From IMG/VR virus record IMGVR_UViG_3300044715_001903: a stretch of DNA of 20,000 nucleotides; one strand, written 5' to 3'. How positions within the stretch are numbered: the stretch's first letter is position 1; every line of letters starts with the position of its first letter. Below the pieces are notes generated by a model. The model was not told the DNA's origin. It ran no database searches and saw only the letters and a program-made list of their open reading frames with translations. The translations under genes and the position numbers were made by a program. This DNA is from an uncultured virus (IMG/VR IMGVR_UViG_3300044715_001903). Taxonomy: Duplodnaviria; Heunggongvirae; Uroviricota; Caudoviricetes. Below are positions 5,494 through 19,526 of this stretch, in pieces.

Positions 5494-6256
5494 GATAGTT
5501 GTTATTGCTGGTTTTCCGCTGCCTAAAATGGGCGGATTAAACCCAGAAGAAAAAGATTATATGGCAGATAAAATCCGTAATGTGCAATTCCAAGAAATTG
5601 CTCCATTGGCGGAAATTGCAGATATTGTTGTTGAGAAAGAAAAAATTTCCCAACAAGAAGCAATTGGTTTAATTCGCAGAACTTTAGAAGGAAACACGGG
5701 TAAAACTGAGGAAGAAATAGACCGATTGCTTACATTTGCGATTGACTACCGCAACGAACTAGGTAGAATTAAAAAGCCTGAAATGATGGTTGAGCGACAA
5801 TCTCAGGAAGTTGCAATCATGATTTTAAAATCACGACTTGCGCCTGATTGGATATTGGCTAATATTGATAATCTCAAAGCATCATTCCGCTGTTCGCCTG
5901 ACAAGGAAAAATGCTCTCAATTGATGGCAGTTCCCGAAGAAAGATGGATGTCTGATCAAAACAGAGATGATATTATCCGTCAAATTGTCCGCAAACTTCC
6001 CCAAAACTTATACTCACAATTATTCTCATTCACGTTAGGCGAAGAGAGGGAATGGGCGGAATTGCCAATATTTACAGTTGAACAAGAACCAGAGGAAGTA
6101 ACGCTGGGGGAGCAATCAAAAGGCTTCAAGAGTACCAAGAGCTCACGGAAAAAGAACGTGAGTTCTACCGAGAGTCCTATTACACCATCCAGTATTTTGG
6201 AGTCACAGACCCCAGTTATCACAGAAGAAACTTCCACCGCGTCCCTTGTTGGGTAA
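5468..6256 (+). CDS. Tail assembly chaperone (gpG-like)
   Basis: Position between tail tube and tape measure; helical acidic protein; slippery G-run at 6106-6110 followed by a low-complexity tail. Confidence 0.7.
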   Translation: MQNPWGIPEIVVIAGFPLPKMGGLNPEEKDYMADKIRNVQFQEIAPLAEIADIVVEKEKISQQEAIGLIRRTLEGNTGKTEEEIDRLLTFAIDYRNELGRIKKPEMMVERQSQEVAIMILKSRLAPDWILANIDNLKASFRCSPDKEKCSQLMAVPEERWMSDQNRDDIIRQIVRKLPQNLYSQLFSFTLGEEREWAELPIFTVEQEPEEVTLGEQSKGFKSTKSSRKKNVSSTESPITPSSILESQTPVITEETSTASLVG

Positions 6257-6534: not shown

Positions 6535-6578
6535 CGTGTTAGATTTACAACACTTCTTTTATTTTGCGGATCACATTT

Positions 6579-7259
6579 ATGACCAAATATTTTCTAGACA
6601 CAGAATTTATAGAGGACGGAACGACTATATCATTGATATCTATAGGGATTGTCTGCGAGGATGGCAGAGAATTTTATGCCGTCAATAGGGATTGTGATTT
6701 AACTAAAGCATCCCAATGGGTAAAGAATAATGTAATTTCTAAGTTACCTCCCAAAGATCCGTTGCCTATTGAGGTTTCACCACGTCTTTGGGAGGAATCA
6801 AAAGTATGGAAAACGAAGGCTGAGATAGCGGAAGAAGTTGCTAATTTCTTCTATTGCTATGGTGAAGTAGAATCAGTAAAACCAACCGGATGGAATAAAT
6901 TTCTACTAAAAATTCAATCTCAATCTCCAATTTGGCTAATCAGGTTAATGCAAGCAACCCAGGTGTTTGCTTATCATTCAAAGACTAAAACAAAATACAG
7001 CTTAGGGATTGGTAGAGCAAAGCCTGAAATATGGGGTTACTATGCAGATTACGATCATGTCGTATTCTGCCAATTATTTGGGGCAATGATTGCATTGCCA
7101 AATGGATTTCCTATGTACACAAAAGACATCAAGCAGTTGTGTGATGACTTAGGTAATCCTGAACTACCAAAACAAGAATCTGGTGAGCATAATGCTTTAG
7201 CTGACGCGAGACACAATCAAGTCATGTATCAATTTTTGATGAATTTAAAGCAGGGTTAG
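6579..7259 (+). CDS. DEDDh 3'-5' exoribonuclease, RNase AS (Rv2179c)-like
   Basis: YFLDTEFIEDG..LISIGIV.EDGREFYAV, WGYYADYDHV..QLFG.M..LP.GFPMYTKD, HNALADARHN. ATG 6579 is preferred over TTG 6564. Confidence 0.88.
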   Translation: MTKYFLDTEFIEDGTTISLISIGIVCEDGREFYAVNRDCDLTKASQWVKNNVISKLPPKDPLPIEVSPRLWEESKVWKTKAEIAEEVANFFYCYGEVESVKPTGWNKFLLKIQSQSPIWLIRLMQATQVFAYHSKTKTKYSLGIGRAKPEIWGYYADYDHVVFCQLFGAMIALPNGFPMYTKDIKQLCDDLGNPELPKQESGEHNALADARHNQVMYQFLMNLKQG

Positions 7260-7284
7260 GGGATAGTCGTATGACTGTCGCAAC

Positions 7285-7312
7285 AACCGCTACACAAGTG
7301 GCGGTTTTGTTG
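7285..7312 (+). terminator. Putative intrinsic terminator hairpin
   Basis: AACCGCTAC-ACAA-GTGGCGGTT followed by TTGTTG, 25 nt after the exoribonuclease stop. Confidence 0.55.
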
Positions 7313-7343
7313 TTACAATGGTGATTTTATTTTACGATCGCAC

Positions 7344-7952
7344 ATGACCTTCAATGTAGATATCCCCCACTTCAAATGTTTTATTAACAAGTCATTTCTT
7401 TATGATTGGGATTTACAGCAAACAGGATGCGTACCCGTCCGGGTATTCGGCATGACTTCTATTCCTGGTCGGGCAGTTGGGTTTAATTTAGTTACTAACC
7501 AGGGAGCGCAATTTGCTAGAGTCCCAATTCATGCTCTCGCTTGGAGAGAAGATTGCGAGCAACTACCATTAGATTGGTTGCAATTGTGGGATTGCTTGAG
7601 TTATCAGCCATGTGCGATCGCCTATTCCTACCTTTCCGAACTACGTTGTAAAACCATTCTCAAAGATGGAAAATGGTATGACGGTGAGTATATGTTCACA
7701 ATTGATTGGGTTGGTGGAGATTGGGCGGAAGATCCAAGCGAACATAAATGTGGCCATGTTTTAAAACTTGATAACGGTTGTTTCGCCATTCAACCCAACA
7801 ACCGAATAATCTGGTTTGACCCCAGTTTTATTACTGAACCATTAACGAAAAATCCTGGCTACAAAATCCATGCTCACAGATACAATAGCGAATCTTCTGG
7901 ATGGATATCAGAAAATAATGGCAATTTTTTCTATGAGATAATTCGATTATAG
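7344..7952 (+). CDS. Conserved phage hypothetical protein
   Basis: Motifs FGMTSIPGRA, LQLWDCLSY, GEYMFTIDW, SEHKCGHVLKLDNG.FA.QPNNRIIW. I recall this pattern from aquatic phage hypotheticals; function unknown. Confidence 0.75.
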   Translation: MTFNVDIPHFKCFINKSFLYDWDLQQTGCVPVRVFGMTSIPGRAVGFNLVTNQGAQFARVPIHALAWREDCEQLPLDWLQLWDCLSYQPCAIAYSYLSELRCKTILKDGKWYDGEYMFTIDWVGGDWAEDPSEHKCGHVLKLDNGCFAIQPNNRIIWFDPSFITEPLTKNPGYKIHAHRYNSESSGWISENNGNFFYEIIRL

Positions 7953-8031: not shown

Positions 8032-11000
8032 ATGACTTCCCTTGGTACTCTTGAACTACAGCTAACGGCCAACCAAGCCGCACTATACCAACAATTGAAT
8101 CAAACCAAGGCTTACGCCACGCAGGTAGCCAAGGGTATTGAGAAGCAGATAAACCAAGCCTTTGGAAGTGTCGGAGGAAACAGGCTAGGAGGTTTAAACC
8201 AAGCAACTGCTCAAGCTGCGAGTGCCGGACAGGCCGCGGGGAGAACTTTCACGGATAGATTCAAGAACGCAGTTGAGCCGATTAAGGGCATTTTAAGCAA
8301 TGTCTTTAATGGTGTTTTTGTTGGGGCTGGGATTGGGGCGTTTAACTCAATTACTGGTGTAGTTGGTTCGGCACTGGGTGCGGTTCAACAATTCGCGGGT
8401 GAGATTTTCAATGTTACCAAAGACTTCCAAAACTTTGAATCTTCACTAAAAACCTTCCTCAAGGGCAATCAAAAAGAAATTGATGATTTTGTCGGCAAGT
8501 TAGAGAAGTTTGCAGCTACTACACCGTTTGAGCTAAAGGATTTACAGCAAGCAGCAATCCAAAACTTAGCAACCGGTGCAAAACCAGATCAGATTATCAA
8601 AGACCTCAAAACCATTGGTGATGTCGCCGCAGGTGCTAACGCCAGACTTGGCGACTTGATGGAAGTTTACGCCAAATCACGGACTGAGGGGAAATTACAG
8701 AATGAAGACATTGACCAATTTACGGGGCGCGGGGTGCAGCTTCGGGCTGAACTTGCCAAAATGCTAGGGGCAAAGGAATCTGAAATTAGACAACTGGCCA
8801 CAGACGGAAAACTAGAATTTCGTCACCTTGAGGAAGCTTTACGCCGCATGAGTGCTGAGGGCGGGGCGTATTTTGGGGCAATGGAGAATAAAGCAAAAAC
8901 TTTAGAAGGTCGTCTATCCAACGTCCAAGATACTTTTTATCAGTTCCAGAAATCAATCGGCGTGGCATTTGAGCCGATCATGAATTTCATTGTCCAGACA
9001 TTTGGTGATATTGTGTCTGGCTTGACATCTTCTAACGGAATCATGAAGGATGTCCGCAAAGAATCTGAGAAATTAGTCGGAACTTTTAAAGCTAATCCGC
9101 AGTTGGTTCAATCCCTAAATAAAGCTATTCAAGAGTTAGTAGCGGGTGCGTTTAAATTATTATTAGACGGGATAACAAGTTTCACCAAATATTTAGAAAC
9201 TAACCCGAATATTATCAGGGATATGTCTACTGCCTTTAATGATTTTTGGGGAGTAGTTAAAGTCGTTTTTGACGGGTTAAAATTTATTTTTGATGGGATA
9301 AATTTAATTGTTGGTGGTATCCAAGCAGGTGCTAGAGGCGCGGCTGATATTTGGGTTGCCAGTGAACCAACTTTAAATAATATTTGGCAGAAAACCATTG
9401 ATATATCAAAAGCGATCGCTGATGGAATTGTTGCGGCATGGAATACCTGTGTAAATTTAGTTAAATCATTGATTAAGTTGATTCAGTCCTTATTTAATGG
9501 TGTTGTAAATCTCACAACTAACGGCATTAATTTGTTGAATGCAGGGCTAAAAACCGCAGTTTCAATTACTCAAGCTATTGGCGAAAATATTGGTAAATGG
9601 ACATCAAATATTGGTAGTGCTATTCAAAAAGCTGGGGAATTTGCAAGTCAAGGAATACCGGGAATTGGCAGCGCGTTTCAATTAGCTACCAAGAAGGCTG
9701 AGGAATTTTGGAAATGGGCAACAGGACAAAATCAACAACCAACGACACAGCCGCAAGCACAGCTACAGGCATCGTCACCTAACTCTGGTAATGGTAATAA
9801 CATAATAGGGAACATCGTTCAGGGCGTGCAAGGTTTTTTTGGGTTAGGATCACCCGCGAACCCCAAAAGCAAGGTAATCATGCGCCGCACTGGGCAAAAA
9901 GACGAAAACGGGCTAGAGAAAATAGCCTTGGTAGTTTATGACGATCAAGGACGGGCGATCGCTCAACACACTGTAAATAGCGGTACTCGTCGCACCCAAG
10001 GAATGTTCGGGGCAGGTGGAACTACTCAAAGCGGATCACTAGCACCTGTTGAATATGGCACTTACAATATTGGTGGCGAAGTTGCAGGGATGGGAGCAGG
10101 AGTTGGATCAAGATTTATTCCTGTAAATCCCACTTTTCGCACTCAACGATCTGCAATTGGTTTTCACTTAGATGCAAACCGACAGACAGCCCCAGGGAGT
10201 GCTGGGTGTATTGTTTTTGCCAACCAACAAGAGTTTGACAGTTTCCGAAATGCTCTCAAGCAAAGTGGCGCAAAACAATTGATTTTTGATGAAGGGAAGG
10301 GGCAAGTAGGTATTGTGAACGCCGTCGTCGGGACAGAGCTTAATAGCTTTAAGCCTATCCAAGAAGCAGCGAAAAATGCACTACCCACAGGTGCGGGTTT
10401 ATCGTCTCGCACTGCCAATATTGTGCGTGGTAAGAATGAGGAGATTTTCGGTAAAGCTGGCGTGACAGATAGCTTAGTTGCGCTAGTTAAAAAATCAGAA
10501 GGTTTTGCAGCAACACCATACTTTGATCGAACTCAATACTCGGTTGGTTTTGGGACTAAGGCTAAATCAACAGGCGATCGCTTAACAGTTGAAGAAGCAA
10601 ACCAACGGCTATTAAATGAGTTACTTTACAAACGTTCTCGCGTTCAGAAAATGGTCAAAGTCCCCATCAACAATAATCAATTGGATGCTTTGACCTCGTT
10701 CGCTTTTAACGTGGGTGAAGGGGCATTAGGAGAAAGTACCCTACTCAAAAAACTAAACTCTGGAGATTATGCAGGTGCGGCTAAAGAGTTTCTGAGGTGG
10801 AATAAAGGTGAACATCGCGGAGTTAAACAAGCATTGCCAGGATTAACCAAGCGGCGTAACTCTGAGATGCAATTATTTCTGAGCCAGTCAAATACTACAC
10901 CTGCTCAACAAGCAGCTATTGGAGAACGGAGAACGGGGAACGGGGAATTAGCGCAAACCCCAGGTGTCGCTCAAGGTGGCAATGCCGAAGATCAACGGAA

Positions 11001-13143
11001 TTTATTAGCAGCACGGCGTAAACTTGCAGAAACCAAATATCGAGAAATTAAAGATGAGATTGACGCGGCTACTAAACAGGCTGATAACGCTCAAAAACAG
11101 CAGCGAGAATTAGATGCTAAAAAACGTGATCAACTAGACAAAGAAAAACGGGCTGAGTTTGCAGCTTACGAGGCTTTAGCCCCAGATGATGAAGCTAAAA
11201 AGATTATTCAGAAACGCGCCAAACAATACGAGATTGATAACAGGTATCAGGAGAATTTGATCAAATTTTCTCAGGAACGCGAGGATCTTCTTGATGCCAG
11301 AAATAAGAAATTAGAGATTTTGGCAGCGGCTAAAAAGCGTGGTGAAACTGTTACGCCGGATGATGCTGGCGTGGATTACTCCAAAGCAATTAATCAGTTA
11401 GATGAAATCATCAAATCTCAGAAACAGTTGCGAGACTTGGAGTTAGAAACCAATAATTTAAACCAGTCCAGTGCAGAAAAAGAAATCGAGAAGAACAAGG
11501 ATCGTCAGCGAGAAATTGAAAAGTTATCTCGCGTCCATGAAGCGTACATTAATCAGTTGAAATTGCAGCAATCATTAGTTGGCGATGATGCGACAAAACA
11601 GGGTATCCAATTAACAATTGATAAGGCGCAGATTGAATACAGTGCTAAGGCCGCATTAATGCCACTGCAAAATCAACTTTATGATTTACAGGATCGGAAA
11701 GTTTATTTGTTGGGTGAGGGGGGATTGAAAAAAGATTCTGAGGAAGTCAAGCGGCTTCAGAAAGATATTAATAATTTAGTTGCTCAAATTCATTCAATTG
11801 CTAATAAGGGTGGCGTGGATTTAAAACTATTTGAGAATCAGCGTAAACAAATTGAGTTGCAAAATCAACGGCTAAGGGAGTCGGAAAAACAGGAAATTGA
11901 ACACAACAAACAAGTTCTTGAGCTTAATAAAGAAATTTCTACCGCACGGACTCAACAACAAAAAGCTGAGTTACAGTTTCAATTAGATAAAATAAACGCA
12001 ATTCAACAAGAAAAGCAGGTGTTAACCACTCTCAAGCAGGAATATGATGATTTAACCCAAGGACGCGAGAAATTAATCAATGAAGGCAAACTAGACGCTG
12101 CTAGTGATGTAATTAAAGTTTTAGACGGTAAGATTGCTGACTTAAACGAAAAAATTAAAATATTGGGCGAACAGTCAAAATCAAGTTTTGAAACCCTTAC
12201 CAGAGAAGGACAAAAAACCATTGAACAAGGCAGGTTTGCGGATCTAGAATCTGCGCTTTCTAAAGAAGCATCAATGTTACCAGCACAAACTGGTTTAATT
12301 CGCAGACGTGGTGGCAATGAATATGAAGTCTCCGCATTAGAAGCTGAAGCCGCAAGAATGGAGGAACAATTTAGATATAAACAAGAATTACTACAAATTG
12401 AACAACAAATAGCCGCCGCGAAAGGAAAAGCCAACGAGTACACAGAGCAAGAAATAGCTGCACTACAAGCCAATGCCGAAGCAATTAACAAGATTAATTT
12501 AGAGGGTATTTCTCAACAAGTGAAAACACTCGGCAAAGACTTATTAGATGTTGGTAAAAACGCCCTCGGTTCATTCTTTGGTGACATCATTTCTGGGTCT
12601 AAATCTGCGGGGGATGCCTTCAAAGACCTGATCGGAAGCATCGCCCAACAATTAACCCAATTGGCGGTTAACTCCCTTATTTCTAGTATCTTTGGTGGAG
12701 GTGGTGGTTTGTTCGGCGGTGGAGGCGGTAAAGGCGGTGGGATACTGGGATTTAGTGAAGGATATGTCCCCAATTACGCCACAGGAAATAGTAACCCCAT
12801 ATCAGAAGCACTAAACCGCGAGAGGGTTCAGTCAGGGGGCAGGAAAGCAATACTGGGCGTGTTTAATGAAGATGAGATGATATTGACCGCAGAACAATCT
12901 AAGCGTTTTCAAGAACTGCGATTAGACAAAATATTGAATTTTGCGAATGGTGGTATTGTCGGAGGTGGTCAAAATTTAAGTAATGAAATCGGGTCTAAAA
13001 ACATGAACATAAATATCCCCGTCACTGTAGAGGGCGGCGGGGATAGCTCGGTCAATGTTCCACAATTGCAAAATTCTCTAAGATCAGTTGTGTTGGCGGA
13101 AATTCAGAAACAACAGCGTCCGGGCGGGGCGTTGAATAGGTAA
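8032..13143 (+). CDS. Tape measure protein with internal Tlde1/LD-transpeptidase-like and GH24 lysozyme domains
   Basis: 1703 aa. N-terminal LGTLELQLTAN and tape-measure domain (FAATTPFEL..GKLQNED..TLEGRLSNVQD); amphipathic repeats; IGFH..SAGCI motif; lysozyme EG..D..GFG/NQLDALTSFAFNVG/GLTKRR.E; coiled coil; lambda-type C-terminus QKQQRPGGALNR. Confidence 0.95.
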   Translation: MTSLGTLELQLTANQAALYQQLNQTKAYATQVAKGIEKQINQAFGSVGGNRLGGLNQATAQAASAGQAAGRTFTDRFKNAVEPIKGILSNVFNGVFVGAGIGAFNSITGVVGSALGAVQQFAGEIFNVTKDFQNFESSLKTFLKGNQKEIDDFVGKLEKFAATTPFELKDLQQAAIQNLATGAKPDQIIKDLKTIGDVAAGANARLGDLMEVYAKSRTEGKLQNEDIDQFTGRGVQLRAELAKMLGAKESEIRQLATDGKLEFRHLEEALRRMSAEGGAYFGAMENKAKTLEGRLSNVQDTFYQFQKSIGVAFEPIMNFIVQTFGDIVSGLTSSNGIMKDVRKESEKLVGTFKANPQLVQSLNKAIQELVAGAFKLLLDGITSFTKYLETNPNIIRDMSTAFNDFWGVVKVVFDGLKFIFDGINLIVGGIQAGARGAADIWVASEPTLNNIWQKTIDISKAIADGIVAAWNTCVNLVKSLIKLIQSLFNGVVNLTTNGINLLNAGLKTAVSITQAIGENIGKWTSNIGSAIQKAGEFASQGIPGIGSAFQLATKKAEEFWKWATGQNQQPTTQPQAQLQASSPNSGNGNNIIGNIVQGVQGFFGLGSPANPKSKVIMRRTGQKDENGLEKIALVVYDDQGRAIAQHTVNSGTRRTQGMFGAGGTTQSGSLAPVEYGTYNIGGEVAGMGAGVGSRFIPVNPTFRTQRSAIGFHLDANRQTAPGSAGCIVFANQQEFDSFRNALKQSGAKQLIFDEGKGQVGIVNAVVGTELNSFKPIQEAAKNALPTGAGLSSRTANIVRGKNEEIFGKAGVTDSLVALVKKSEGFAATPYFDRTQYSVGFGTKAKSTGDRLTVEEANQRLLNELLYKRSRVQKMVKVPINNNQLDALTSFAFNVGEGALGESTLLKKLNSGDYAGAAKEFLRWNKGEHRGVKQALPGLTKRRNSEMQLFLSQSNTTPAQQAAIGERRTGNGELAQTPGVAQGGNAEDQRNLLAARRKLAETKYREIKDEIDAATKQADNAQKQQRELDAKKRDQLDKEKRAEFAAYEALAPDDEAKKIIQKRAKQYEIDNRYQENLIKFSQEREDLLDARNKKLEILAAAKKRGETVTPDDAGVDYSKAINQLDEIIKSQKQLRDLELETNNLNQSSAEKEIEKNKDRQREIEKLSRVHEAYINQLKLQQSLVGDDATKQGIQLTIDKAQIEYSAKAALMPLQNQLYDLQDRKVYLLGEGGLKKDSEEVKRLQKDINNLVAQIHSIANKGGVDLKLFENQRKQIELQNQRLRESEKQEIEHNKQVLELNKEISTARTQQQKAELQFQLDKINAIQQEKQVLTTLKQEYDDLTQGREKLINEGKLDAASDVIKVLDGKIADLNEKIKILGEQSKSSFETLTREGQKTIEQGRFADLESALSKEASMLPAQTGLIRRRGGNEYEVSALEAEAARMEEQFRYKQELLQIEQQIAAAKGKANEYTEQEIAALQANAEAINKINLEGISQQVKTLGKDLLDVGKNALGSFFGDIISGSKSAGDAFKDLIGSIAQQLTQLAVNSLISSIFGGGGGLFGGGGGKGGGILGFSEGYVPNYATGNSNPISEALNRERVQSGGRKAILGVFNEDEMILTAEQSKRFQELRLDKILNFANGGIVGGGQNLSNEIGSKNMNINIPVTVEGGGDSSVNVPQLQNSLRSVVLAEIQKQQRPGGALNR

Positions 13144-13563: not shown

Positions 13564-13949
13564 AAATTAGATCAGATTGGTTGTTTATCCAGAATACCAA
13601 TCTGATTTACCAGTTTTACGGATATTTATCACCCCATACCCAAAGAACAGGGAATGAACATTCTACGTAATTCCCAATGAAAAGTAAGCCAAGATACATC
13701 AATAAACCCAATTACACCCAAAAAGTAACGTTGTTCACTATCTGTAAGGTTACTCGATATTTATCACGGTAGTTGCTAGATTTCAGCACACATAAGGCAT
13801 ACACGCATTTTTTGTATGCCTTTTATCCCTCATAATTAAATTTAAAAATCCTCCAAAGTCTTATACAAAAGCACTTTGGAGGATTTTAAATTATTTTAAT
13901 AGAAACTAAATGGCCGTTGACTTCACGCCATTTGTTTAAGTAACTGTGC

Positions 13950-13981
13950 AAAAGACAGGGTATCTAAGTACCCTGTCTTTT
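13950..13981 (-). terminator. Intrinsic terminator of the minus-strand accessory operon (possibly bidirectional)
   Basis: Perfect 13-bp inverted repeat AAAAGACAGGGTA-TCTAAG-TACCCTGTCTTTT, 5 nt after the stop at 13987. Confidence 0.75.
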
Positions 13982-13986
13982 AAAAA

Positions 13987-14418
13987 TTATGAATTGTGCA
14001 ACGCCGATCTCTCGGCGTGTTTCTGTTCAATGGTAGGTGAAACACCTACCCACTGCTCTTTGTCTATTATTATTCTCTTTATCCGCACCAGTCCAGTGTA
14101 GGAGAAAATCGGTTCTCCGTCAACCACTTCCCGTGTGGTCTGGGGGATAAGGAAGGTCCTTATCCCCGCGTTAAGCCAGTCTATTTGGAGGTTTAGTGGT
14201 GCAACTGCTACCACTATTGAGTCAGCCGAGATCGTATGGCATACTATCTCTTGAACGCTATCTGTGTCTTGAGCAAGAATTATCTCGCTGAATGTGATAG
14301 TGTCGCCAGTGCGGCGAATATCTTTGATCGTCCCTCTAACCTGGTTTATAGCACCACCCCCCAGGTCTTCGACCATTTTAGGGTCTATTTTGTGCCGACT
14401 GAAAAAATAAACACTCAT
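13987..14418 (-). CDS. Small alpha/beta protein with N-terminal FFSRH motif; candidate Csx16-like ring nuclease
   Basis: 143 aa, AGGAG RBS upstream. YFFSRH..DSIVVAVAPLNL..AGIRTFLIP resembles my recollection of Csx16 (WFxSRH..GDxVIGTLPV.LA..GARY). The CDS is solid; the function is tentative. Confidence 0.5.
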   Translation of the reverse strand: MSVYFFSRHKIDPKMVEDLGGGAINQVRGTIKDIRRTGDTITFSEIILAQDTDSVQEIVCHTISADSIVVAVAPLNLQIDWLNAGIRTFLIPQTTREVVDGEPIFSYTGLVRIKRIIIDKEQWVGVSPTIEQKHAERSALHNS

Positions 14419-14521
14419 TCATTTTGAACTCCTAATGTTATGTTTGCGAATAAACCGCCAAGATATAAGCAAATATTACTTGTATCTTGGCGATCGCGGA
14501 ACTAAGAAGCTCCGCAAAAGT

Positions 14522-14884
14522 CTAACCCCACTCCAAAAACTCTATTTTCATCTTTACAGATTGCTTGAACAGTCTGTAGTCAAACTTAGATGACAGCATC
14601 AGGTTCGATTCATAGGGCTTTATGCCTTTACACCAACTAACAGATATGTGAGGATATTTGTTAGCGCAGGGAATATGATCAGGAAGTTTGACAGCTACAG
14701 CTTGTATTTTGCCGTTCCAAGCTTCATATAAAGTTGTGGCTTGGAACTCTTCGCCTATCCAGTGTGTCCAGTTTTCCCGATGCACCCCAAACTGAAGGGT
14801 TATATGGCGGGGACTCCCAACGGGGTAGCGTTGGGGAATTAATAGGGGTGTCTGGATGACAGCCCACAAAATTCCTTTAGTCAC
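14522..14884 (-). CDS. 2H phosphoesterase (cyclic phosphodiesterase; LigT/tRNA-ligase CPD/Acb1 superfamily)
   Basis: Two Hx[T/S] motifs, RHITLQFG and YPHISVS, followed by GIKPYESNLML (GVKPxxSNxML-like CPD motif). Confidence 0.8.
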   Translation of the reverse strand: MTKGILWAVIQTPLLIPQRYPVGSPRHITLQFGVHRENWTHWIGEEFQATTLYEAWNGKIQAVAVKLPDHIPCANKYPHISVSWCKGIKPYESNLMLSSKFDYRLFKQSVKMKIEFLEWG

Positions 14885-15239
14885 CTAAAGAAACCAGTGA
14901 ATAAATAATATCCGCTTTTATGTCCTCCGTCTGTTGCTCCAGTGGCAACCCTACCAACTCTGAATCAAGCAGACTAACCCTAACACCGACTTTGAACAAC
15001 TTGATCAAGGTCAGTCCACCTACCGAATCAGCGATTATGTGGTCGCCTTTATTTAGGATGATTTTAACCTCTTTCACGAGGTCTTTATCGTCGTAGCAGT
15101 GTTCAAATTCCTCAACTACGAGGACACCTTCCCTGATATAGAAATAAAAGGTGTTACCTTGACTTTCCCTCTCGTAGGAAAAGTCGGGATTAATCCCTAA
15201 CTTCTGGTTAAATTCCTGACTTAAAAACGAGTAGATCAT
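14877..15239 (-). CDS. Hypothetical protein
   Basis: ATG at 15239 with a GAGG RBS (120 aa). The ORF-track GTG at 15278 lies in the ribozyme stem I. The stop overlaps the start of the 2H gene. Confidence 0.7.
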   Translation of the reverse strand: MIYSFLSQEFNQKLGINPDFSYERESQGNTFYFYIREGVLVVEEFEHCYDDKDLVKEVKIILNKGDHIIADSVGGLTLIKLFKVGVRVSLLDSELVGLPLEQQTEDIKADIIYSLVSLGD

Positions 15240-15267
15240 GTTTATTTCCTCTTGTGGGGTGAAATTG

Positions 15268-15329
15268 TGACTTCCCACGACTACCAGGTGGTAGTTTCGT
15301 CCGGTAGTCAGCCGGACTCGTCAGGCGGG
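15268..15329 (-). ncRNA. Hammerhead ribozyme, type I, with loop II pseudoknot
   Basis: Minus strand: CCCGC CUGACGA GUCCGG[CUGACUA]CCGGAC GAAA CUACC[ACCU]GGUAG UC^ GUGGG A AGUCA. All core nucleotides, three stems, a GUC cleavage triplet, and loop II UGACU complementary to the 3' AGUCA are present. Confidence 0.9.
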
Positions 15330-15355
15330 CTATTCAAACTTTATGCCCCTCTCTT
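15286..15355. repeat. 70-bp direct repeat, copy 1
   Basis: 64 identical nt + 1 mismatch + 5 identical nt versus 16501-16570; spacing 1215 bp. Confidence 0.97.
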
Positions 15356-16452
15356 GACTCTTGTTTGAGCCACTTCTCAAAGGGCTTAACAACACCGTTC
15401 TTTATCTTCTGATCGTGCCTGTACTCGTCGTACCTTTTTTCTTGTTGCTGCTTAATTTCTTCTTGTTGCGCGAGCAACTCACTTGCCCGTCTGCGTTCAG
15501 CCAATAGGCTGTTTATATGGTTCATAATCTCATCTCTATCTGAACCCAAGGATTTAGATTTCCTGGTGCGTTCAGCCAACCCACGGGTGCGGTCTTCACA
15601 TTGTTGCCACACTGTCCCATCTTGGGTGTCCCACCAGAATGAATAAATGTAATCATCACCAATCCAAAAGCGATTGACGCTGCCCTTGGAATAAACCTCT
15701 TTCTGAAACCACTCAGGCATGGGTATGGCGGACTCAGCCGCTTTTATGGCTGCTTGTCTTGCTGCTAAATCTGCAGCATCAAAAGCCGCGTTCTTTTGTT
15801 TTCGATTTTCAATGTCACTAACAAACAGTTCCCATGTCATTTTTTCTCTTTTGCAGTGTTCATAAATTAAAACCTGTATTCTCCCCACTACTTCCTGTTC
15901 AGTAGGAATAGTGTATGTTTTCTTATTTTCAGTAACCCAGATGATAGTACCATCTGAGTGTTTATATTCATATTTTGTGTATACGTGTTTGTCAACAGAA
16001 TCGGCAAAGCCAAAACCGTCCATTTGGTCATAAGTAGCTACTTCTTTATCACGTCCGGTAGCTTTAAAAACTTGACCGCAATATTTACGGTCTAATTCGT
16101 GTATATAGTAGCTAATCCCGGAAGATAAACCTGAACCGAAGAAGCCCCAAGCACCTCTTGTTTGGTACTTGTGCCAGTCATCTAACTTATTAAACCCATT
16201 CTTAATGTCAGACAACAAAGCATCTTTTACTTCTAATTGCTCTTGCTTTTCTTCACCCCAGGAAACACACTGGGATAGTCTGTCGCAATCAAAATCTATG
16301 CTGCCGTAAATTTCAATTTCTGTTTCTTCCCAGTCAAGTTCATCAGGGTTAATCCCTGTTGCAATAATTCCATCAACTAAAGATCCGCCAAGGATCTTAT
16401 TTAATTTCTTCTGAATAGTAAAGTGTAAATCCTGAGCATTAATCTTAAACAT
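15334..16452 (-). CDS. Hypothetical protein (372 aa) flanked by the hammerhead repeats
   Basis: ATG at 16452 with a GAGGA RBS is preferred over GTG 16485; charged, coiled-coil C-terminus; no family recognised. Confidence 0.8.
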   Translation of the reverse strand: MFKINAQDLHFTIQKKLNKILGGSLVDGIIATGINPDELDWEETEIEIYGSIDFDCDRLSQCVSWGEEKQEQLEVKDALLSDIKNGFNKLDDWHKYQTRGAWGFFGSGLSSGISYYIHELDRKYCGQVFKATGRDKEVATYDQMDGFGFADSVDKHVYTKYEYKHSDGTIIWVTENKKTYTIPTEQEVVGRIQVLIYEHCKREKMTWELFVSDIENRKQKNAAFDAADLAARQAAIKAAESAIPMPEWFQKEVYSKGSVNRFWIGDDYIYSFWWDTQDGTVWQQCEDRTRGLAERTRKSKSLGSDRDEIMNHINSLLAERRRASELLAQQEEIKQQQEKRYDEYRHDQKIKNGVVKPFEKWLKQESREGHKV

Positions 16453-16477
16453 TTTTTCTTCCTCATTTATATCAATT

Positions 16478-16544
16478 TGAATCACCTCGTCTACCCAACG
16501 AGGTGGTAGTTTCGTCCGGTAGTCAGCCGGACTCGTCAGGCGGG
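16478..16544 (-). ncRNA. Second hammerhead-like motif, variant/degenerate
   Basis: Same 5' core and stem II as copy 1 and stem III CUACC/GGUAG, but the cleavage triplet is GAC, the stem I 3' strand is GAGGU and the pseudoknot partner is AUUCA. Confidence 0.55.
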
Positions 16545-16570
16545 CTATTCAAACTTTATGCCCCACTCTT
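16501..16570. repeat. 70-bp direct repeat, copy 2
   Basis: See 15286-15355. Confidence 0.97.
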
Positions 16571-16697
16571 CTAGCTGGGCTAAAGCCCAAGTGCAGCCAT
16601 TTTTGGCTGCTTCTTCAACTGAAGTGATCGCTTCAAGCGTTATATATTCTGCAGTTGCTTCCATTTGGCAGTTGTTCTCAACTTTTACTAGCTTCAC
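16545..16697 (-). CDS. Small hypothetical protein (50 aa), missing from the ORF track
   Basis: GTG start with AAGGA RBS right after the sigma70 promoter: MKLVKVENNCQMEATAEYITLEAITSVEEAAKNGCTWALAQLEEWGIKFE*. The stop TAG abuts hammerhead stem I. Confidence 0.65.
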   Translation of the reverse strand: MKLVKVENNCQMEATAEYITLEAITSVEEAAKNGCTWALAQLEEWGIKFE

Positions 16698-16730
16698 TTG
16701 TTTCTTTCCTTTGCTTTACCCTATATTTAT

Positions 16731-16759
16731 AGTCTACTAGAGTTATTCTAGTTTGTCAA
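16731..16759 (-). promoter_or_regulatory. Sigma70-type promoter of the accessory operon with a palindromic operator in the spacer
   Basis: TTGACA-N17-TAGACT on the minus strand; ACTAGA-N5-TCTAGT palindrome at 16736-16752. Confidence 0.8.
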
Positions 16760-16979
16760 GTGGTTTTTCAATTATTTTAGAAGATATTTTCAAAATAACT
16801 GAGGACGCTCTAGGATCACGATCTAGCAGTGCTTCTAGAAATTCCCCATACATAGGATAAATATTTTCTTTTTGCCGGAAGAAAAAGCCGGCTTCTATCA
16901 AAACCTTATCCCAGGCTGCTTTTTTGTCTTTTGGCAGTCGGCATTGAATCCGAACTTTGTCTTCATTAGGTCTGGACAT
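16743..16979 (-). CDS. Small putative DNA-binding protein (ribbon-helix-helix-like)
   Basis: 78 aa; MSRP..KVRIQCRLPKDKKAAWDKV fits the RHH strand-helix pattern; GGAG RBS upstream. Confidence 0.55.
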   Translation of the reverse strand: MSRPNEDKVRIQCRLPKDKKAAWDKVLIEAGFFFRQKENIYPMYGEFLEALLDRDPRASSVILKISSKIIEKPLDKLE

Positions 16980-17211: not shown

Positions 17212-17967
17212 CTACCCCACCCACCGGCACACGAACCGAGTAGCCGTCTCCCAATATCCACCATACATAAACAACTCACTCATCCGCCCTTCACCTAAAT
17301 TGTGGAGGGCTTTGCCATTTTTAGGATCTAGCAAAATTGCGGAGTGGTGAGTCTGTGTGCCAGAAATGCACATCAATATAACATCATTAGTTCGTAGTGG
17401 TTCATCGGTTAATTTCCTAAAGCCCGCCCTTTCAAAATTGCCTACGAACATATTCCATCCAGGTGACGTGGTTTCTTGGATGTTGTTGCGGGGAAAATCA
17501 GGTAAATTTATGCCAAGCATCCCTTTATAGTACGAACGAACCAGCGTGTAACAATCACTGCGGTTATAGTCAAATCTCCATCCCAGATAAAACGGTAATT
17601 CTTTCGGCAGCCAAGGATTTGGGATTAACGGGTAGGGGTAAATATCGGCAGGATCATAATAGTCCCATTCCCCAAAGTCCGTATGGTACAAAGCGTAGGG
17701 TATTTTCCTTGCTTTGCTATTGGCGATGTCCTTGGCACTTAAAATAGCCGGCTGTGAATCAAGGCAATGACTGTGGTAGATTCCCACTGCGGAGTCAGCG
17801 ACTAACTCAAACTCATCTTCATTAATCAGAAATTCGTGTTGCGGTTCATTTGCACAATTGTTCATTTGTATAATTGTGCCGTTGTTCAGAACTACGCCAC
17901 AGATTTCTACATCCGGCGTGGCGATCGCTTGCTCAATAATTTGCCGCTTGATTTGTGAGGTTAGCAT
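17212..17967 (-). CDS. Tail tip assembly protein K-like (JAB/MPN + NlpC/P60)
   Basis: EICGVV..IYHSH..LSAKD (JAB), then F.YNRSDCYTLVRSYY..HHSAIL..LHNL..RMSE..YGGYW (NlpC/P60), which is the lambda gpK architecture. Confidence 0.92.
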   Translation of the reverse strand: MLTSQIKRQIIEQAIATPDVEICGVVLNNGTIIQMNNCANEPQHEFLINEDEFELVADSAVGIYHSHCLDSQPAILSAKDIANSKARKIPYALYHTDFGEWDYYDPADIYPYPLIPNPWLPKELPFYLGWRFDYNRSDCYTLVRSYYKGMLGINLPDFPRNNIQETTSPGWNMFVGNFERAGFRKLTDEPLRTNDVILMCISGTQTHHSAILLDPKNGKALHNLGEGRMSELFMYGGYWETATRFVCRWVG

Positions 17968-18046: not shown

Positions 18047-18118
18047 TGTCGGGGATGGGAATTGAACCCAATATTTCGAGCTTATGAGACTCGCGTGATC
18101 CGTTTCACTCCCCCGGCA
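18047..18118 (-). tRNA. tRNA with CAT anticodon (Met-like), atypical
   Basis: GCCGGGG-GA-GTGA(AACGGA)TCAC-G-CGAGT(CTCATAA)GCTCG-AAATA-TTGGG(TTCAATT)CCCAT-CCCCGAC-A. C-A mismatch in the acceptor stem, T-T in the T stem, no encoded CCA. Confidence 0.75.
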
Positions 18119-18264
18119 ACCGCCATTCCTGTTAGTCCGCAAGGCATGAAGCCTGTGCAAGATCAATCAGTTCTGGCGTAAAATCATGATAGCACAGATT
18201 TAGTTCAATGTTTCTGAACTACCGTCAAAATCCCTGTTAGCGATAGATTCTAAAGATTTATTTA

Positions 18265-18310
18265 CCGCCTTCTAAGCGGACGGTCACAGGTTCGAGCCCT
18301 GTCGTACCCA
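18265..18310 (+). other. att core: 3' half of tRNA-Arg(UCU)
   Basis: CCGC-CTTCTAA-GCGG-ACGGTC-ACAGG-TTCGAGC-CCTGT-CGTACCC-A. No D arm or 5' acceptor strand upstream; 142 nt before the integrase. Confidence 0.85.
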
Positions 18311-18320
18311 TTAACTTAAG

Positions 18321-18452: not shown

Positions 18453-19526
18453 ATGAAAGGAAAATGGACTTTAGAAGAAGTGAATCAACGCCTAAAAGCC
18501 GGAAGAATCGGCGTTACAGTTTGTCAACGTGGAGACAGGCTTTCACTTCGTGGTACATTTCCGGCAAAACCAGGAATTGGTAAACCACCTCACCAACAAT
18601 ATCTAGCTTTAGGATGCTATGCCAACCCCGCAGGGCTGCAATATGCCGAAGCTGAAGCTAAAAAAGTTGGTGGAATACTGGCCCAAAAACAATTCACCTG
18701 GTCTGATTATCTAGAAGAACCATTGGCACCGGTTGGCGATGCTCAATCATGGGTTAGGAAATTCGAGATTGATTATTACACCCGCAAAGGCCGCACCCCT
18801 ACTACTGAAACCACTTGGAAATCAGATTACCTGCCAGCATGGCAACTTCTAGAAGGGGAATTAACAGCGGCAACAATCATCACCGCAGCAGGTAAAACCA
18901 GAGCCAATACCCGCAAACGTAAACGGGTATGTGAAAAGTTGCTGGCATTAGCTAAATTCGCAGATGTAAATGTAGATTTAAAACCATACCTGGGGACTTA
19001 TGGGAGCGCTGAAACCATGCCAAGGAACATCCCCAACAAAGCTCAGATTGAAAAGAGTAGAAATTTATTTACTGGCCATTGGCAATGGGGATATGGAGTA
19101 TTAGCAGCTTACGGACTTCGACCCCATGAATTATTTTTCTGTGAAATCTCACCAGAGCATCCGTACTTATTAAAAGTTCTAAAAGGCAAAACAGGCTATA
19201 GAGAAGTTTACCCTTACCATCTAGAATGGGCTAAAGAATGGCAACTATGGGAGCAAGTCACACTCCCATGCAATGCTGATACGTTTAAAGAATATGGTGG
19301 TCGCGTGACCCGGACATTTGCTAGGAAGAATGTTCCCTTTACTGCTTATTGTCTACGCCACGCCTACTGTATTCGGTTGGCTACAGAATACAAAATCCCG
19401 GTTGCGATCGCTGCTAGTTGGGCAGGACACGAACCGGGAATATATTTAAAAACTTATCAAAGATGGATCGGGAAATCTGAGAAGCGGCGAATATTTGAAG
19501 AGAGTCAAAAATTAATTATGTCGTAA
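18453..19526 (+). CDS. int: Tyrosine recombinase/integrase (cyanobacterial type)
   Basis: Catalytic motifs YGLRPHE (R), GKTG (K), YCLRHAY (xxxR), WAGH (H), KTYQRWI (Y); N-terminal LSLRGTFPAKPG arm-binding-like region. Confidence 0.95.
   Translation: MKGKWTLEEVNQRLKAGRIGVTVCQRGDRLSLRGTFPAKPGIGKPPHQQYLALGCYANPAGLQYAEAEAKKVGGILAQKQFTWSDYLEEPLAPVGDAQSWVRKFEIDYYTRKGRTPTTETTWKSDYLPAWQLLEGELTAATIITAAGKTRANTRKRKRVCEKLLALAKFADVNVDLKPYLGTYGSAETMPRNIPNKAQIEKSRNLFTGHWQWGYGVLAAYGLRPHELFFCEISPEHPYLLKVLKGKTGYREVYPYHLEWAKEWQLWEQVTLPCNADTFKEYGGRVTRTFARKNVPFTAYCLRHAYCIRLATEYKIPVAIAASWAGHEPGIYLKTYQRWIGKSEKRRIFEESQKLIMS

Follow-up and report, generated by a model that had tools for sequence, protein, structure and literature searches.

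A type I hammerhead at a gene boundary of a freshwater cyanophage operon and a conserved downstream complement of its stem I

A minus-strand operon of five genes was analyzed in a 20,000-nucleotide stretch of an uncultured virus (IMG/VR IMGVR_UViG_3300044715_001903; hereafter, the window), which comes from a tailed phage, or a prophage, of freshwater cyanobacteria. The operon, reading orf50, orf372, orf120, a 2H phosphoesterase gene and the gene for a protein here called FFSRH, is probably a variable accessory unit of freshwater cyanobacterial tailed phages, presumably expressed early. As read from its sequence, it contains one complete type I hammerhead at the boundary of orf372 and orf120, followed by a conserved CCCAC that can pair with a strand of the ribozyme's own stem I. 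While the gene-hammerhead-gene layout is already known, the conserved CCCAC complement of stem I is the new part here. The explanation toward which we lean is that of a cassette operon whose messages, once cut, would be capped by a GUGGG/CCCAC hairpin. All operon features given below are on the minus strand.

The hammerhead extends from 15330 to 15268. According to the criteria in the available text of Perreault et al (2011; PMC3088659), its core is complete (C3 U4 G5 A6 N7 G8 A9, G12 A13 A14, the A15-U16 pair and H17). The stretch forms three stems, with stem I (15329-15325 with 15278-15274) open and no mispairs beside the core; loop II (15310-15306) can form a pseudoknot with the 3′ tail (15272-15268), and the cut is predicted 3′ of C15279 (GUC). 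The stretch is thus one type I hammerhead, predicted to cleave itself. A pattern scan of viral contigs yielded 48 stretches, and covariation was analyzed in an alignment of 39 distinct hammerheads out of 58 listed. In this alignment, 94.8% of 814 cells were paired, a level reached by none of 500 shuffles (slid controls, 26–48%), and 13 of 21 pairs showed two-sided changes. The helix between loop II and the 3′ tail was paired in 80.5% of the cells across the 39 sequences, with two-sided changes in four of its five pairs. The invariance of the catalytic core, together with compensatory changes in stems II and III and in the pseudoknot, indicates selection on RNA structure; hammerhead copies within one array diverge in sequence and retain the structure. 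Several loci show variants of the core or its junctions, with one base more after CUGAUGA, a core G replaced by A, or U as the basal nucleotide of stem II (L007 3827, L008 2512, L017 5549, L084 3771, and L011 4805; L numbers designate viral loci). A model derived from these hammerheads gave the complete copy 79.8 bits and a second hammerhead-like stretch upstream 45 bits.

An earlier, sequence-only reading of this DNA had counted the two stretches as a hammerhead and a hammerhead-like element. The downstream one stands, being complete and covarying, whereas the upstream one does not. The two are parts of a 73-nucleotide direct repeat, 97% identical and 1215 nucleotides apart, and the upstream copy (16498..16570) comprises the tail of orf50 and the 5′ half of a hammerhead (5′ strand of stem I, core, stem II, GAAA, and 5′ strand of stem III). 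Its hammerhead portion (16545-16498) lacks the A15-U16 pair, the UH triplet, and the partner of stem I. It stops in stem III and reads, from 16500, the codons Arg-Trp-Val-Asp-Glu, which correspond to residue 28 onward of the 372-residue protein family in L004, L040, L045, and L018; the DNA of these four loci at that very point resembles stem III. The continuation at residue 28 and the resemblance to stem III suggest that recombination at a short homology fused half a ribozyme to the gene for the 372-residue protein. Judged on these features, the upstream copy is a recombination scar and not a second ribozyme. The gene concerned, orf372 (15334..16452, ATG start), belongs to an unknown family that usually heads such arrays and matched no Pfam or NCBIfam family at cut-off. 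Fused at codon ∼28, it has lost ∼27 N-terminal residues, and toward its 3′ end it runs through the orf50-tail sequence in a different reading frame. A second ribozyme together with an excised circular mRNA of this gene was considered and is ruled out because the upstream copy has no cleavage site. In L074 (4976-5000; also L075 and L076), the 5′ start of a hammerhead, consisting of the stem I strand and the core, runs directly into the start codon of the 2H gene, another instance in which deletion has removed a ribozyme.

The CCCAC element (15254..15258) lies directly before the GAGG ribosome-binding site (15251-15248) and is complementary to the GUGGG strand of stem I; the two strands can either form a hairpin at the 5′ end of the 3′ cleavage product or constitute an inactive alternative fold. 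In all 35 distinct hammerheads of the cyanophage clade, CCCAC was found 12–20 nucleotides after the GUGGG strand (shuffles: mean 1.1, maximum 5), with 19 different sequences in the loop between them, and a purine-rich site followed within 8 nucleotides in 27 of the 35. For comparison, 47 hammerheads from 18 loci of unrelated phages were inspected. CCCAC itself was not enriched there (13 of 47, with a shuffled maximum of 14), but the four-base form was (42, with a shuffled maximum of 37), and the complement of the first four nucleotides followed in 43 of the 47. Eight hammerheads with a changed strand (GCGGG or GCAGG) have a matching partner (CCCG or CUGC), seven of these eight sharing one variant and probably being close kin. 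These patterns are consistent with CCCAC being a device for product release and end protection. In the synthetic insulator RiboJ, a terminal hairpin after the hammerhead raises mRNA about twofold, according to the accessible part of that work (PMC6206723).

The arrangement around the ribozyme recurs in relatives, where a short gene and the promoter are followed by as many as four hammerheads, all located at boundaries between genes. In the cyanophage clade, the upstream stop codon was no more than 10 nucleotides from stem I in 28 of 35 cases, often 0–4 nucleotides, and an ATG followed within 60 nucleotides of the cut in 27 of 35; in other phages, a stop codon was this close in 9 of 47. The cargo changes from array to array. 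The 372-residue family comes first, paralogues of orf120 (frequently in tandem, each behind its own hammerhead) and other small unknown families follow, and the 2H and then the FFSRH gene often come last. In the accessible sections of Perreault et al (2011; PMC3088659), prophage hammerheads likewise flank single genes or gene blocks of inconstant identity, one array surrounds the anti-restriction gene ardA, and tandem copies cleave in vitro and in Escherichia coli, with no circular products reported there. The proposal of the sequence-only reading that ribozymes punctuate a probably early operon is therefore borne out by the recurring layout in relatives, but this genome has a single cut site, and the layout as such had been described. 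The same hammerhead subfamily is also present in operons of unrelated phages (L043, L054, L065-L070, and L033-L059), with up to six or more copies per array, and the genes downstream of hammerheads in unrelated phages include those for LPD25, DUF3846, MazE-like, and AAA proteins. In the cultured Aphanizomenon phage vB_AphaS-CL131 (CL131; L072), a divergent hammerhead of the subfamily (5671-5739) overlaps gp130, annotated as a gene of 24 codons.

In the explanation toward which we lean, the unit of the cassette would be a gene, its stop codon, a type I hammerhead, CCCAC, a ribosome-binding site, and the next gene. The nascent RNA would be cut by the ribozyme just past the upstream stop codon, whereupon the 3′ piece would exchange stem I for the GUGGG/CCCAC hairpin at its 5′-OH end. 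This hairpin would release the product, disfavor re-ligation, and shield the end from 5′-dependent decay, while the ribosome-binding site would stay free, and each gene or block would gain its own stable message. Recombination would have left one cut in this genome, giving rise to the messages orf50-orf372 and orf120-2H-(FFSRH).

Several observations weigh against this explanation. The score of the complete hammerhead with Rfam RF00163 (Hammerhead_1) was 23.1 bits (E 0.14), which is below the gathering score of 34; that model was built on short repeat-type forms. When folded with ViennaRNA, which ignores the pseudoknot, the CCCAC hairpin beat stem I in the uncut RNA of 30 of the 35 cyanophage-clade hammerheads (0.66 versus 0.23 in this window), so that cutting would need the pseudoknot or a co-transcriptional time window. 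A looser test, which asked only for a paired 5′ end in the minimum free energy structure, had a high shuffle background (23.6 of 35 and 34.8 of 47). The 35 hammerheads stem from 19 loci that are related by descent and hence not independent. A scan of 44 proteins encoded just downstream of hammerheads (of 66 listed) gave no hit to any anti-defence family of Pfam at E ≤ 0.001. The structural model of the 2H protein, discussed below, is of low confidence (pLDDT 66.8). Finally, we infer cleavage, transcript ends, and timing from the DNA. Fourteen RNA runs contain part of the operon, none of them half of it, and contigs from four RNA runs carry identical pieces of orf50, orf372, orf120, and the 2H and FFSRH genes. 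No piece spans the predicted cut among those listed (19 others were not listed), but such contigs, which carry no strand, end, or level and break at repeats, are evidence neither way.

The 2H gene (14522..14884; 120 residues), the start of which overlaps the stop codon of orf120, encodes a protein with the motifs His27-x-Thr29 and His79-x-Ser81, which were invariant in 23 of 23 aligned sequences (the query and 22 of 25 hits). It reached 31.7 bits with PF08302 (Trl1-CPD; cut-off 23), over residues 56-103 only. In fold searches with the model of pLDDT 66.8, CNPase (Z 8.4; root-mean-square deviation 3.8 over 119 aligned residues) was ahead of Acb1, the second-best 2H enzyme (Z 5.5; 4.7 over 106 residues), and the top ranks of Foldseek were all CNPase, with E of at least 0.0045. 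The protein had no PHROG match, and no Acb1 chain was found at E ≤ 1 in the PDB sequence search. Its classification as a 2H phosphodiesterase is thus upheld by the motifs and by PF08302, but an affiliation with Acb1 fits less well than one with CNPase. On the predicted structure, it is a minimal enzyme of the Trl1-CPD/CNPase type, its fold lying nearer to that of CNPase than to that of Acb1. With the fungal Trl1 CPD domain and vertebrate CNPase (PMC5434554, as far as its accessible text goes), it shares the two H-x-T/S motifs and the best fold match; it differs from them as a stand-alone protein of 120 residues with no kinase or ligase domain in this operon. With Acb1 (PDB 7t27; available part of PMC9117128), it shares a compact phage 2H fold and a C-terminal aromatic residue, and the family has a conserved C-terminal Glu-Trp and several aromatic residues, loosely reminiscent of the Acb1 lid. 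It differs in its lower fold score, 15% identity, the lack of a PDB sequence match, and a spacing of 52 rather than 69 between the histidines. The Trl1-CPD/CNPase type favors RNA cyclic-phosphate ends over CBASS signals as the substrate. The chances that the enzyme opens 2′,3′-cyclic phosphates appear about evenly balanced, and Acb1-like cleavage of cyclic dinucleotides is doubtful. In phage CL131 (L072), gp120 (9022-9537), annotated as polynucleotide kinase/phosphatase, lies on the opposite strand 1.7 kb past the 2H gene and would suit RNA end repair.

FFSRH (13987..14418; 143 residues) belongs to a largely phage-borne family, SRH, that was gathered from 46 close hits, 56 representatives, and 124 further hits. 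It comprises well over a hundred proteins from cyanophages and gut phages, is without a Pfam family in the Pfam copy searched, and is marked by a conserved Ser-Arg-His, with invariant Ser, His, and Pro and near-invariant Arg. The family occurs in 53 more viral loci, in very mixed and scattered contexts (15 of the 53 examined), and our own hammerhead model found no hammerhead near it in these 53; Rfam at the gathering score, applied to 16 of the 53 as well as to L009 and L010, returned one tRNA only. Among 401 host-phylum genomes, the SRH profile matched 2 and the 2H profile 3; within this sample, both therefore appear to be carried by phages. The FFSRH model is confident (pLDDT 89.4) and shows a small α/β fold with inserted hairpins. 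Foldseek against the PDB gave no clear match (best E 0.025), nor did VIA (best Z 5.0, for an unrelated reductase, and 4.9), which is no proof of a new fold, and BFVD contained one close, unnamed relative. The small Rossmann-like core of FFSRH matched CARF-type chains, including Csm6, Cdn1, and Can2, weakly (Z 3.6–4.3). The SRH profiles had no sequence match in the PDB. The label Csx16-like, given to FFSRH in the sequence-only reading, is supported by no model tested: neither TIGR02620 (Csx16) nor NF040559 (Csx20) was matched, FFSRH matching no family at E ≤ 1, and neither appears in the 25 families listed (of 43) for 92 SRH members, the remainder being single-member hits with E of at least 0.06. 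Csx15 was matched weakly by 5 of the 92 (best E 0.0099). In the Atlas neighbor cluster of FFSRH, 23% carry PF27247 MJ1673 (scores 0.85 and 0.76; scores under 0.9 serve as leads only), and MJ1673 would be Csx20, given a match to NF040559 in M. jannaschii. According to the accessible part of the source (10.1101/2024.09.24.614671), both Csx16 and Csx20 have been proven to cleave cA4, and few phages carry them. Like these two, Csx15, and AcrIII-1, FFSRH is a small α/β protein in which a conserved polar motif follows strand 1, and it is phage-borne, as an anti-CRISPR would be; unlike them, it matches no curated model and has an inserted β-hairpin and a C-terminal helix, and no CRISPR genes were noticed in the cyanophage loci examined. 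FFSRH is a candidate cyclic-oligonucleotide nuclease or sponge, with ring-nuclease activity as a lead, and that it binds or cleaves a cyclic nucleotide signal can be suggested only tentatively.

In 13 related loci, the genes for 2H and FFSRH lie next to each other, with a 4-nucleotide overlap in 8 of the 12 listed, and the pair is also present in CL131 (gp125/gp124). This adjacency and the translational overlap suggest a shared role. That role might be counter-defence, with 2H as an Acb1-like nuclease of CBASS signals and FFSRH as a Csx16/Csx20-like ring nuclease of the cA4 made in type III CRISPR immunity, an idea to which the second rank of Acb1 in the fold search, the lid-like C-terminus (available part of PMC9117128), the invariant SRH residues, the Rossmann-like core, the scattered phage contexts, and the MJ1673 and Csx15 leads all contribute. 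We nevertheless consider it rather unlikely, given the missing matches to Csx16, Csx20, and PDB sequences, the unrelated reductase as the best fold match of FFSRH, the Atlas scores, and the better fit of 2H to Trl1-CPD and CNPase. In addition, Csx16 and Csx20 were not found in the 201 and 151 host-phylum genomes searched, respectively. Alternatively, 2H might be a dedicated partner of the ribozyme that turns the 2′,3′-cyclic phosphate left by the hammerhead into a 2′-phosphate and 3′-OH, thereby blocking re-ligation or starting turnover of the upstream piece. The chemistry fits, and of 22 loci that have a close homologue of 2H, 15 carry a full hammerhead upstream (at 311–1743 nucleotides in the 13 measured; L015, L016, L085, and duplicates of a contig were left out as nearly identical to this phage). 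Hammerheads and 2H genes thus do co-occur in cyanophages, but neither enzyme is obligately tied to ribozymes: the other 7 of the 22 have no full hammerhead in the DNA available (L006, L023, L074-L076, L079, and L082, some of them short DNA), the four distant 2H loci have none upstream (L022, L073, L089, and L090), the arrays of L004, L040, and L045 have no intact 2H gene in ∼5 kb downstream, and in unrelated phages, no homologue of 2H turned up next to hammerheads of this subfamily. The shared ancestry of one locus explains the co-occurrence. This alternative is unlikely, and a dedicated healing role of 2H, although possible, is not required by the data. In L004 (4192-4251), a 20-codon match (75%) to the 2H C-terminus, possibly a remnant, lies downstream of the array. 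Each gene is also found without the other (L017, L018, L074, and L077; L009 and L010), and together they are probably terminal cargo that often travels as a pair, with a counter-defence or RNA-repair function, rather than dedicated ribozyme partners.

The ribozyme itself could serve differently from what the cassette explanation proposes. A ribosome terminating at the upstream stop codon might cover the 5′ strand of stem I, so that CCCAC captures GUGGG and the ribozyme is switched off, cutting taking place only when the upstream gene is untranslated. The close stop codons in the cyanophage clade and the thermodynamic preference for the alternative hairpin speak for such a switch, which we nonetheless hold to be quite unlikely since other phages have the complement in 43 of 47 cases with a close stop codon in only 9, and compact genomes by themselves yield short gaps. 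A combined version appears improbable. In it, hammerheads of a widespread phage subfamily would act as two-state cassettes, the stem I strand passing from the tail of the upstream gene to the conserved complement downstream. Ribosome traffic at the upstream stop would decide on cutting, and each cut would yield a hairpin-capped message ready for ribosomes. The cyanophage arrays would end in a new ring-nuclease-like SRH family paired with a minimal 2H enzyme, the two jointly disabling immunity based on nucleotide signals. Least probable is that the hammerheads are mainly repeated landmarks for recombinational shuffling of cassettes, with cleavage being incidental. The scar, located within stem III where the sequence briefly matches the 372-residue gene, the hammerhead remnant fused to the 2H start in L074-L076, and the varying gene content would all be expected in that case, but the invariant core, the compensatory changes in stems II and III and the pseudoknot, and the divergence of copies in one array that keep their structure argue for selection on the RNA.

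The remaining features of the operon were found where the sequence-only reading had placed them, which applies to all five open reading frames (ORFs), the promoter-like site, the hairpins between the 2H and FFSRH genes, and the terminator-like stem. The σ70-type promoter-like site (TTGACA-17-TAGACT; 16731..16759) matches 10 of 12 positions and is the best of seven sites within 6 kb, but this number of sites lies below the shuffle mean of 13.4 and so does not exceed chance. Inspected by eye, 13 of 15 array starts have a TTGACA 50–90 nucleotides ahead of the first gene; a strict spacer test counts 7 of 15. A 78-residue ORF (16743..16979), probably for a small DNA-binding regulator, ends on this promoter and might regulate the array; it has homologues in L017 and L074, and short genes lie at the equivalent place in L004, L007, L008, L011, and L081. 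The first gene, orf50 (16545..16697; 50 residues, GTG start), the stop codon of which abuts stem I of the half-hammerhead, was assigned to no family in the family-library scans and has a homologue in L010 (60% over residues 17-46). For orf120 (14877..15239; 120 residues, ATG start, unknown family), distant paralogy with SRH was considered and rejected (hhalign probability 0.6%; no NCBIfam or PDB support). Two adjacent hairpins (14440..14515; z −7.6) occupy the 103-nucleotide gap between the 2H and FFSRH genes and are absent in relatives in which these genes overlap; FFSRH may be co-transcribed across this gap, just as early timing and an anti-defence function may apply to the operon. The terminator-like hairpin (13945..13978; z −5.5), with T runs on both sides, faces the convergent tape-measure gene, and two more strong hairpins (13790-13900; z −6.5 and −3.7) lie between it and a 139-residue ORF.

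The operon converges on tail genes. The tape-measure gene (8032-13143) encodes a lysozyme domain and has an additional weak Tlde1-like match, and amid the tail genes, at 6564-7952, lie a gene of PHROG 3704 and one for a 3′-5′ exoribonuclease resembling Rv2179c/RNase AS. Also present are an NlpC/P60 tail gene (17212-17967), a tRNA (18047-18117), and an ORF that reads as integrase-like (18453-19526), beside which 18264-18314 is matched by contigs with tRNA-like flanks and may therefore hold another tRNA gene or part of an attachment site. The window contains nine sites of the HIP1 motif GCGATCGC, and its closest named relatives are phage CL131 and a Dolichospermum metagenome-assembled genome.

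The prophage arrays of Perreault et al (PMC3088659, accessible sections) resemble this operon in their intergenic pseudoknotted hammerheads, variable flanked genes, and proposed processing into gene-length mRNAs. RiboJ (PMC6206723, available text) resembles it in the order of hammerhead cut, 5′-terminal hairpin, and ribosome-binding site; the phage form is natural, and its hairpin re-uses the stem I strand of the ribozyme and so competes with the active fold. In a literature search outside whose coverage subscription journals lay, no description was found of a downstream stem I complement in phage hammerheads or of hammerheads combined with 2H enzymes. What self-cleaving ribozymes do for phages is an open question according to the accessible part of PMC6765202, and the conserved CCCAC is a concrete, mutable element that makes this question directly testable. 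With vB_AphaS-CL131, which has a related hammerhead, a 2H gene, and an SRH gene, a cultured phage is at hand in which the question can be addressed during infection. The SRH family may reasonably be regarded as a candidate new type of anti-signalling protein and, if its members do cleave cA4, would add a family to the viral ring nucleases.

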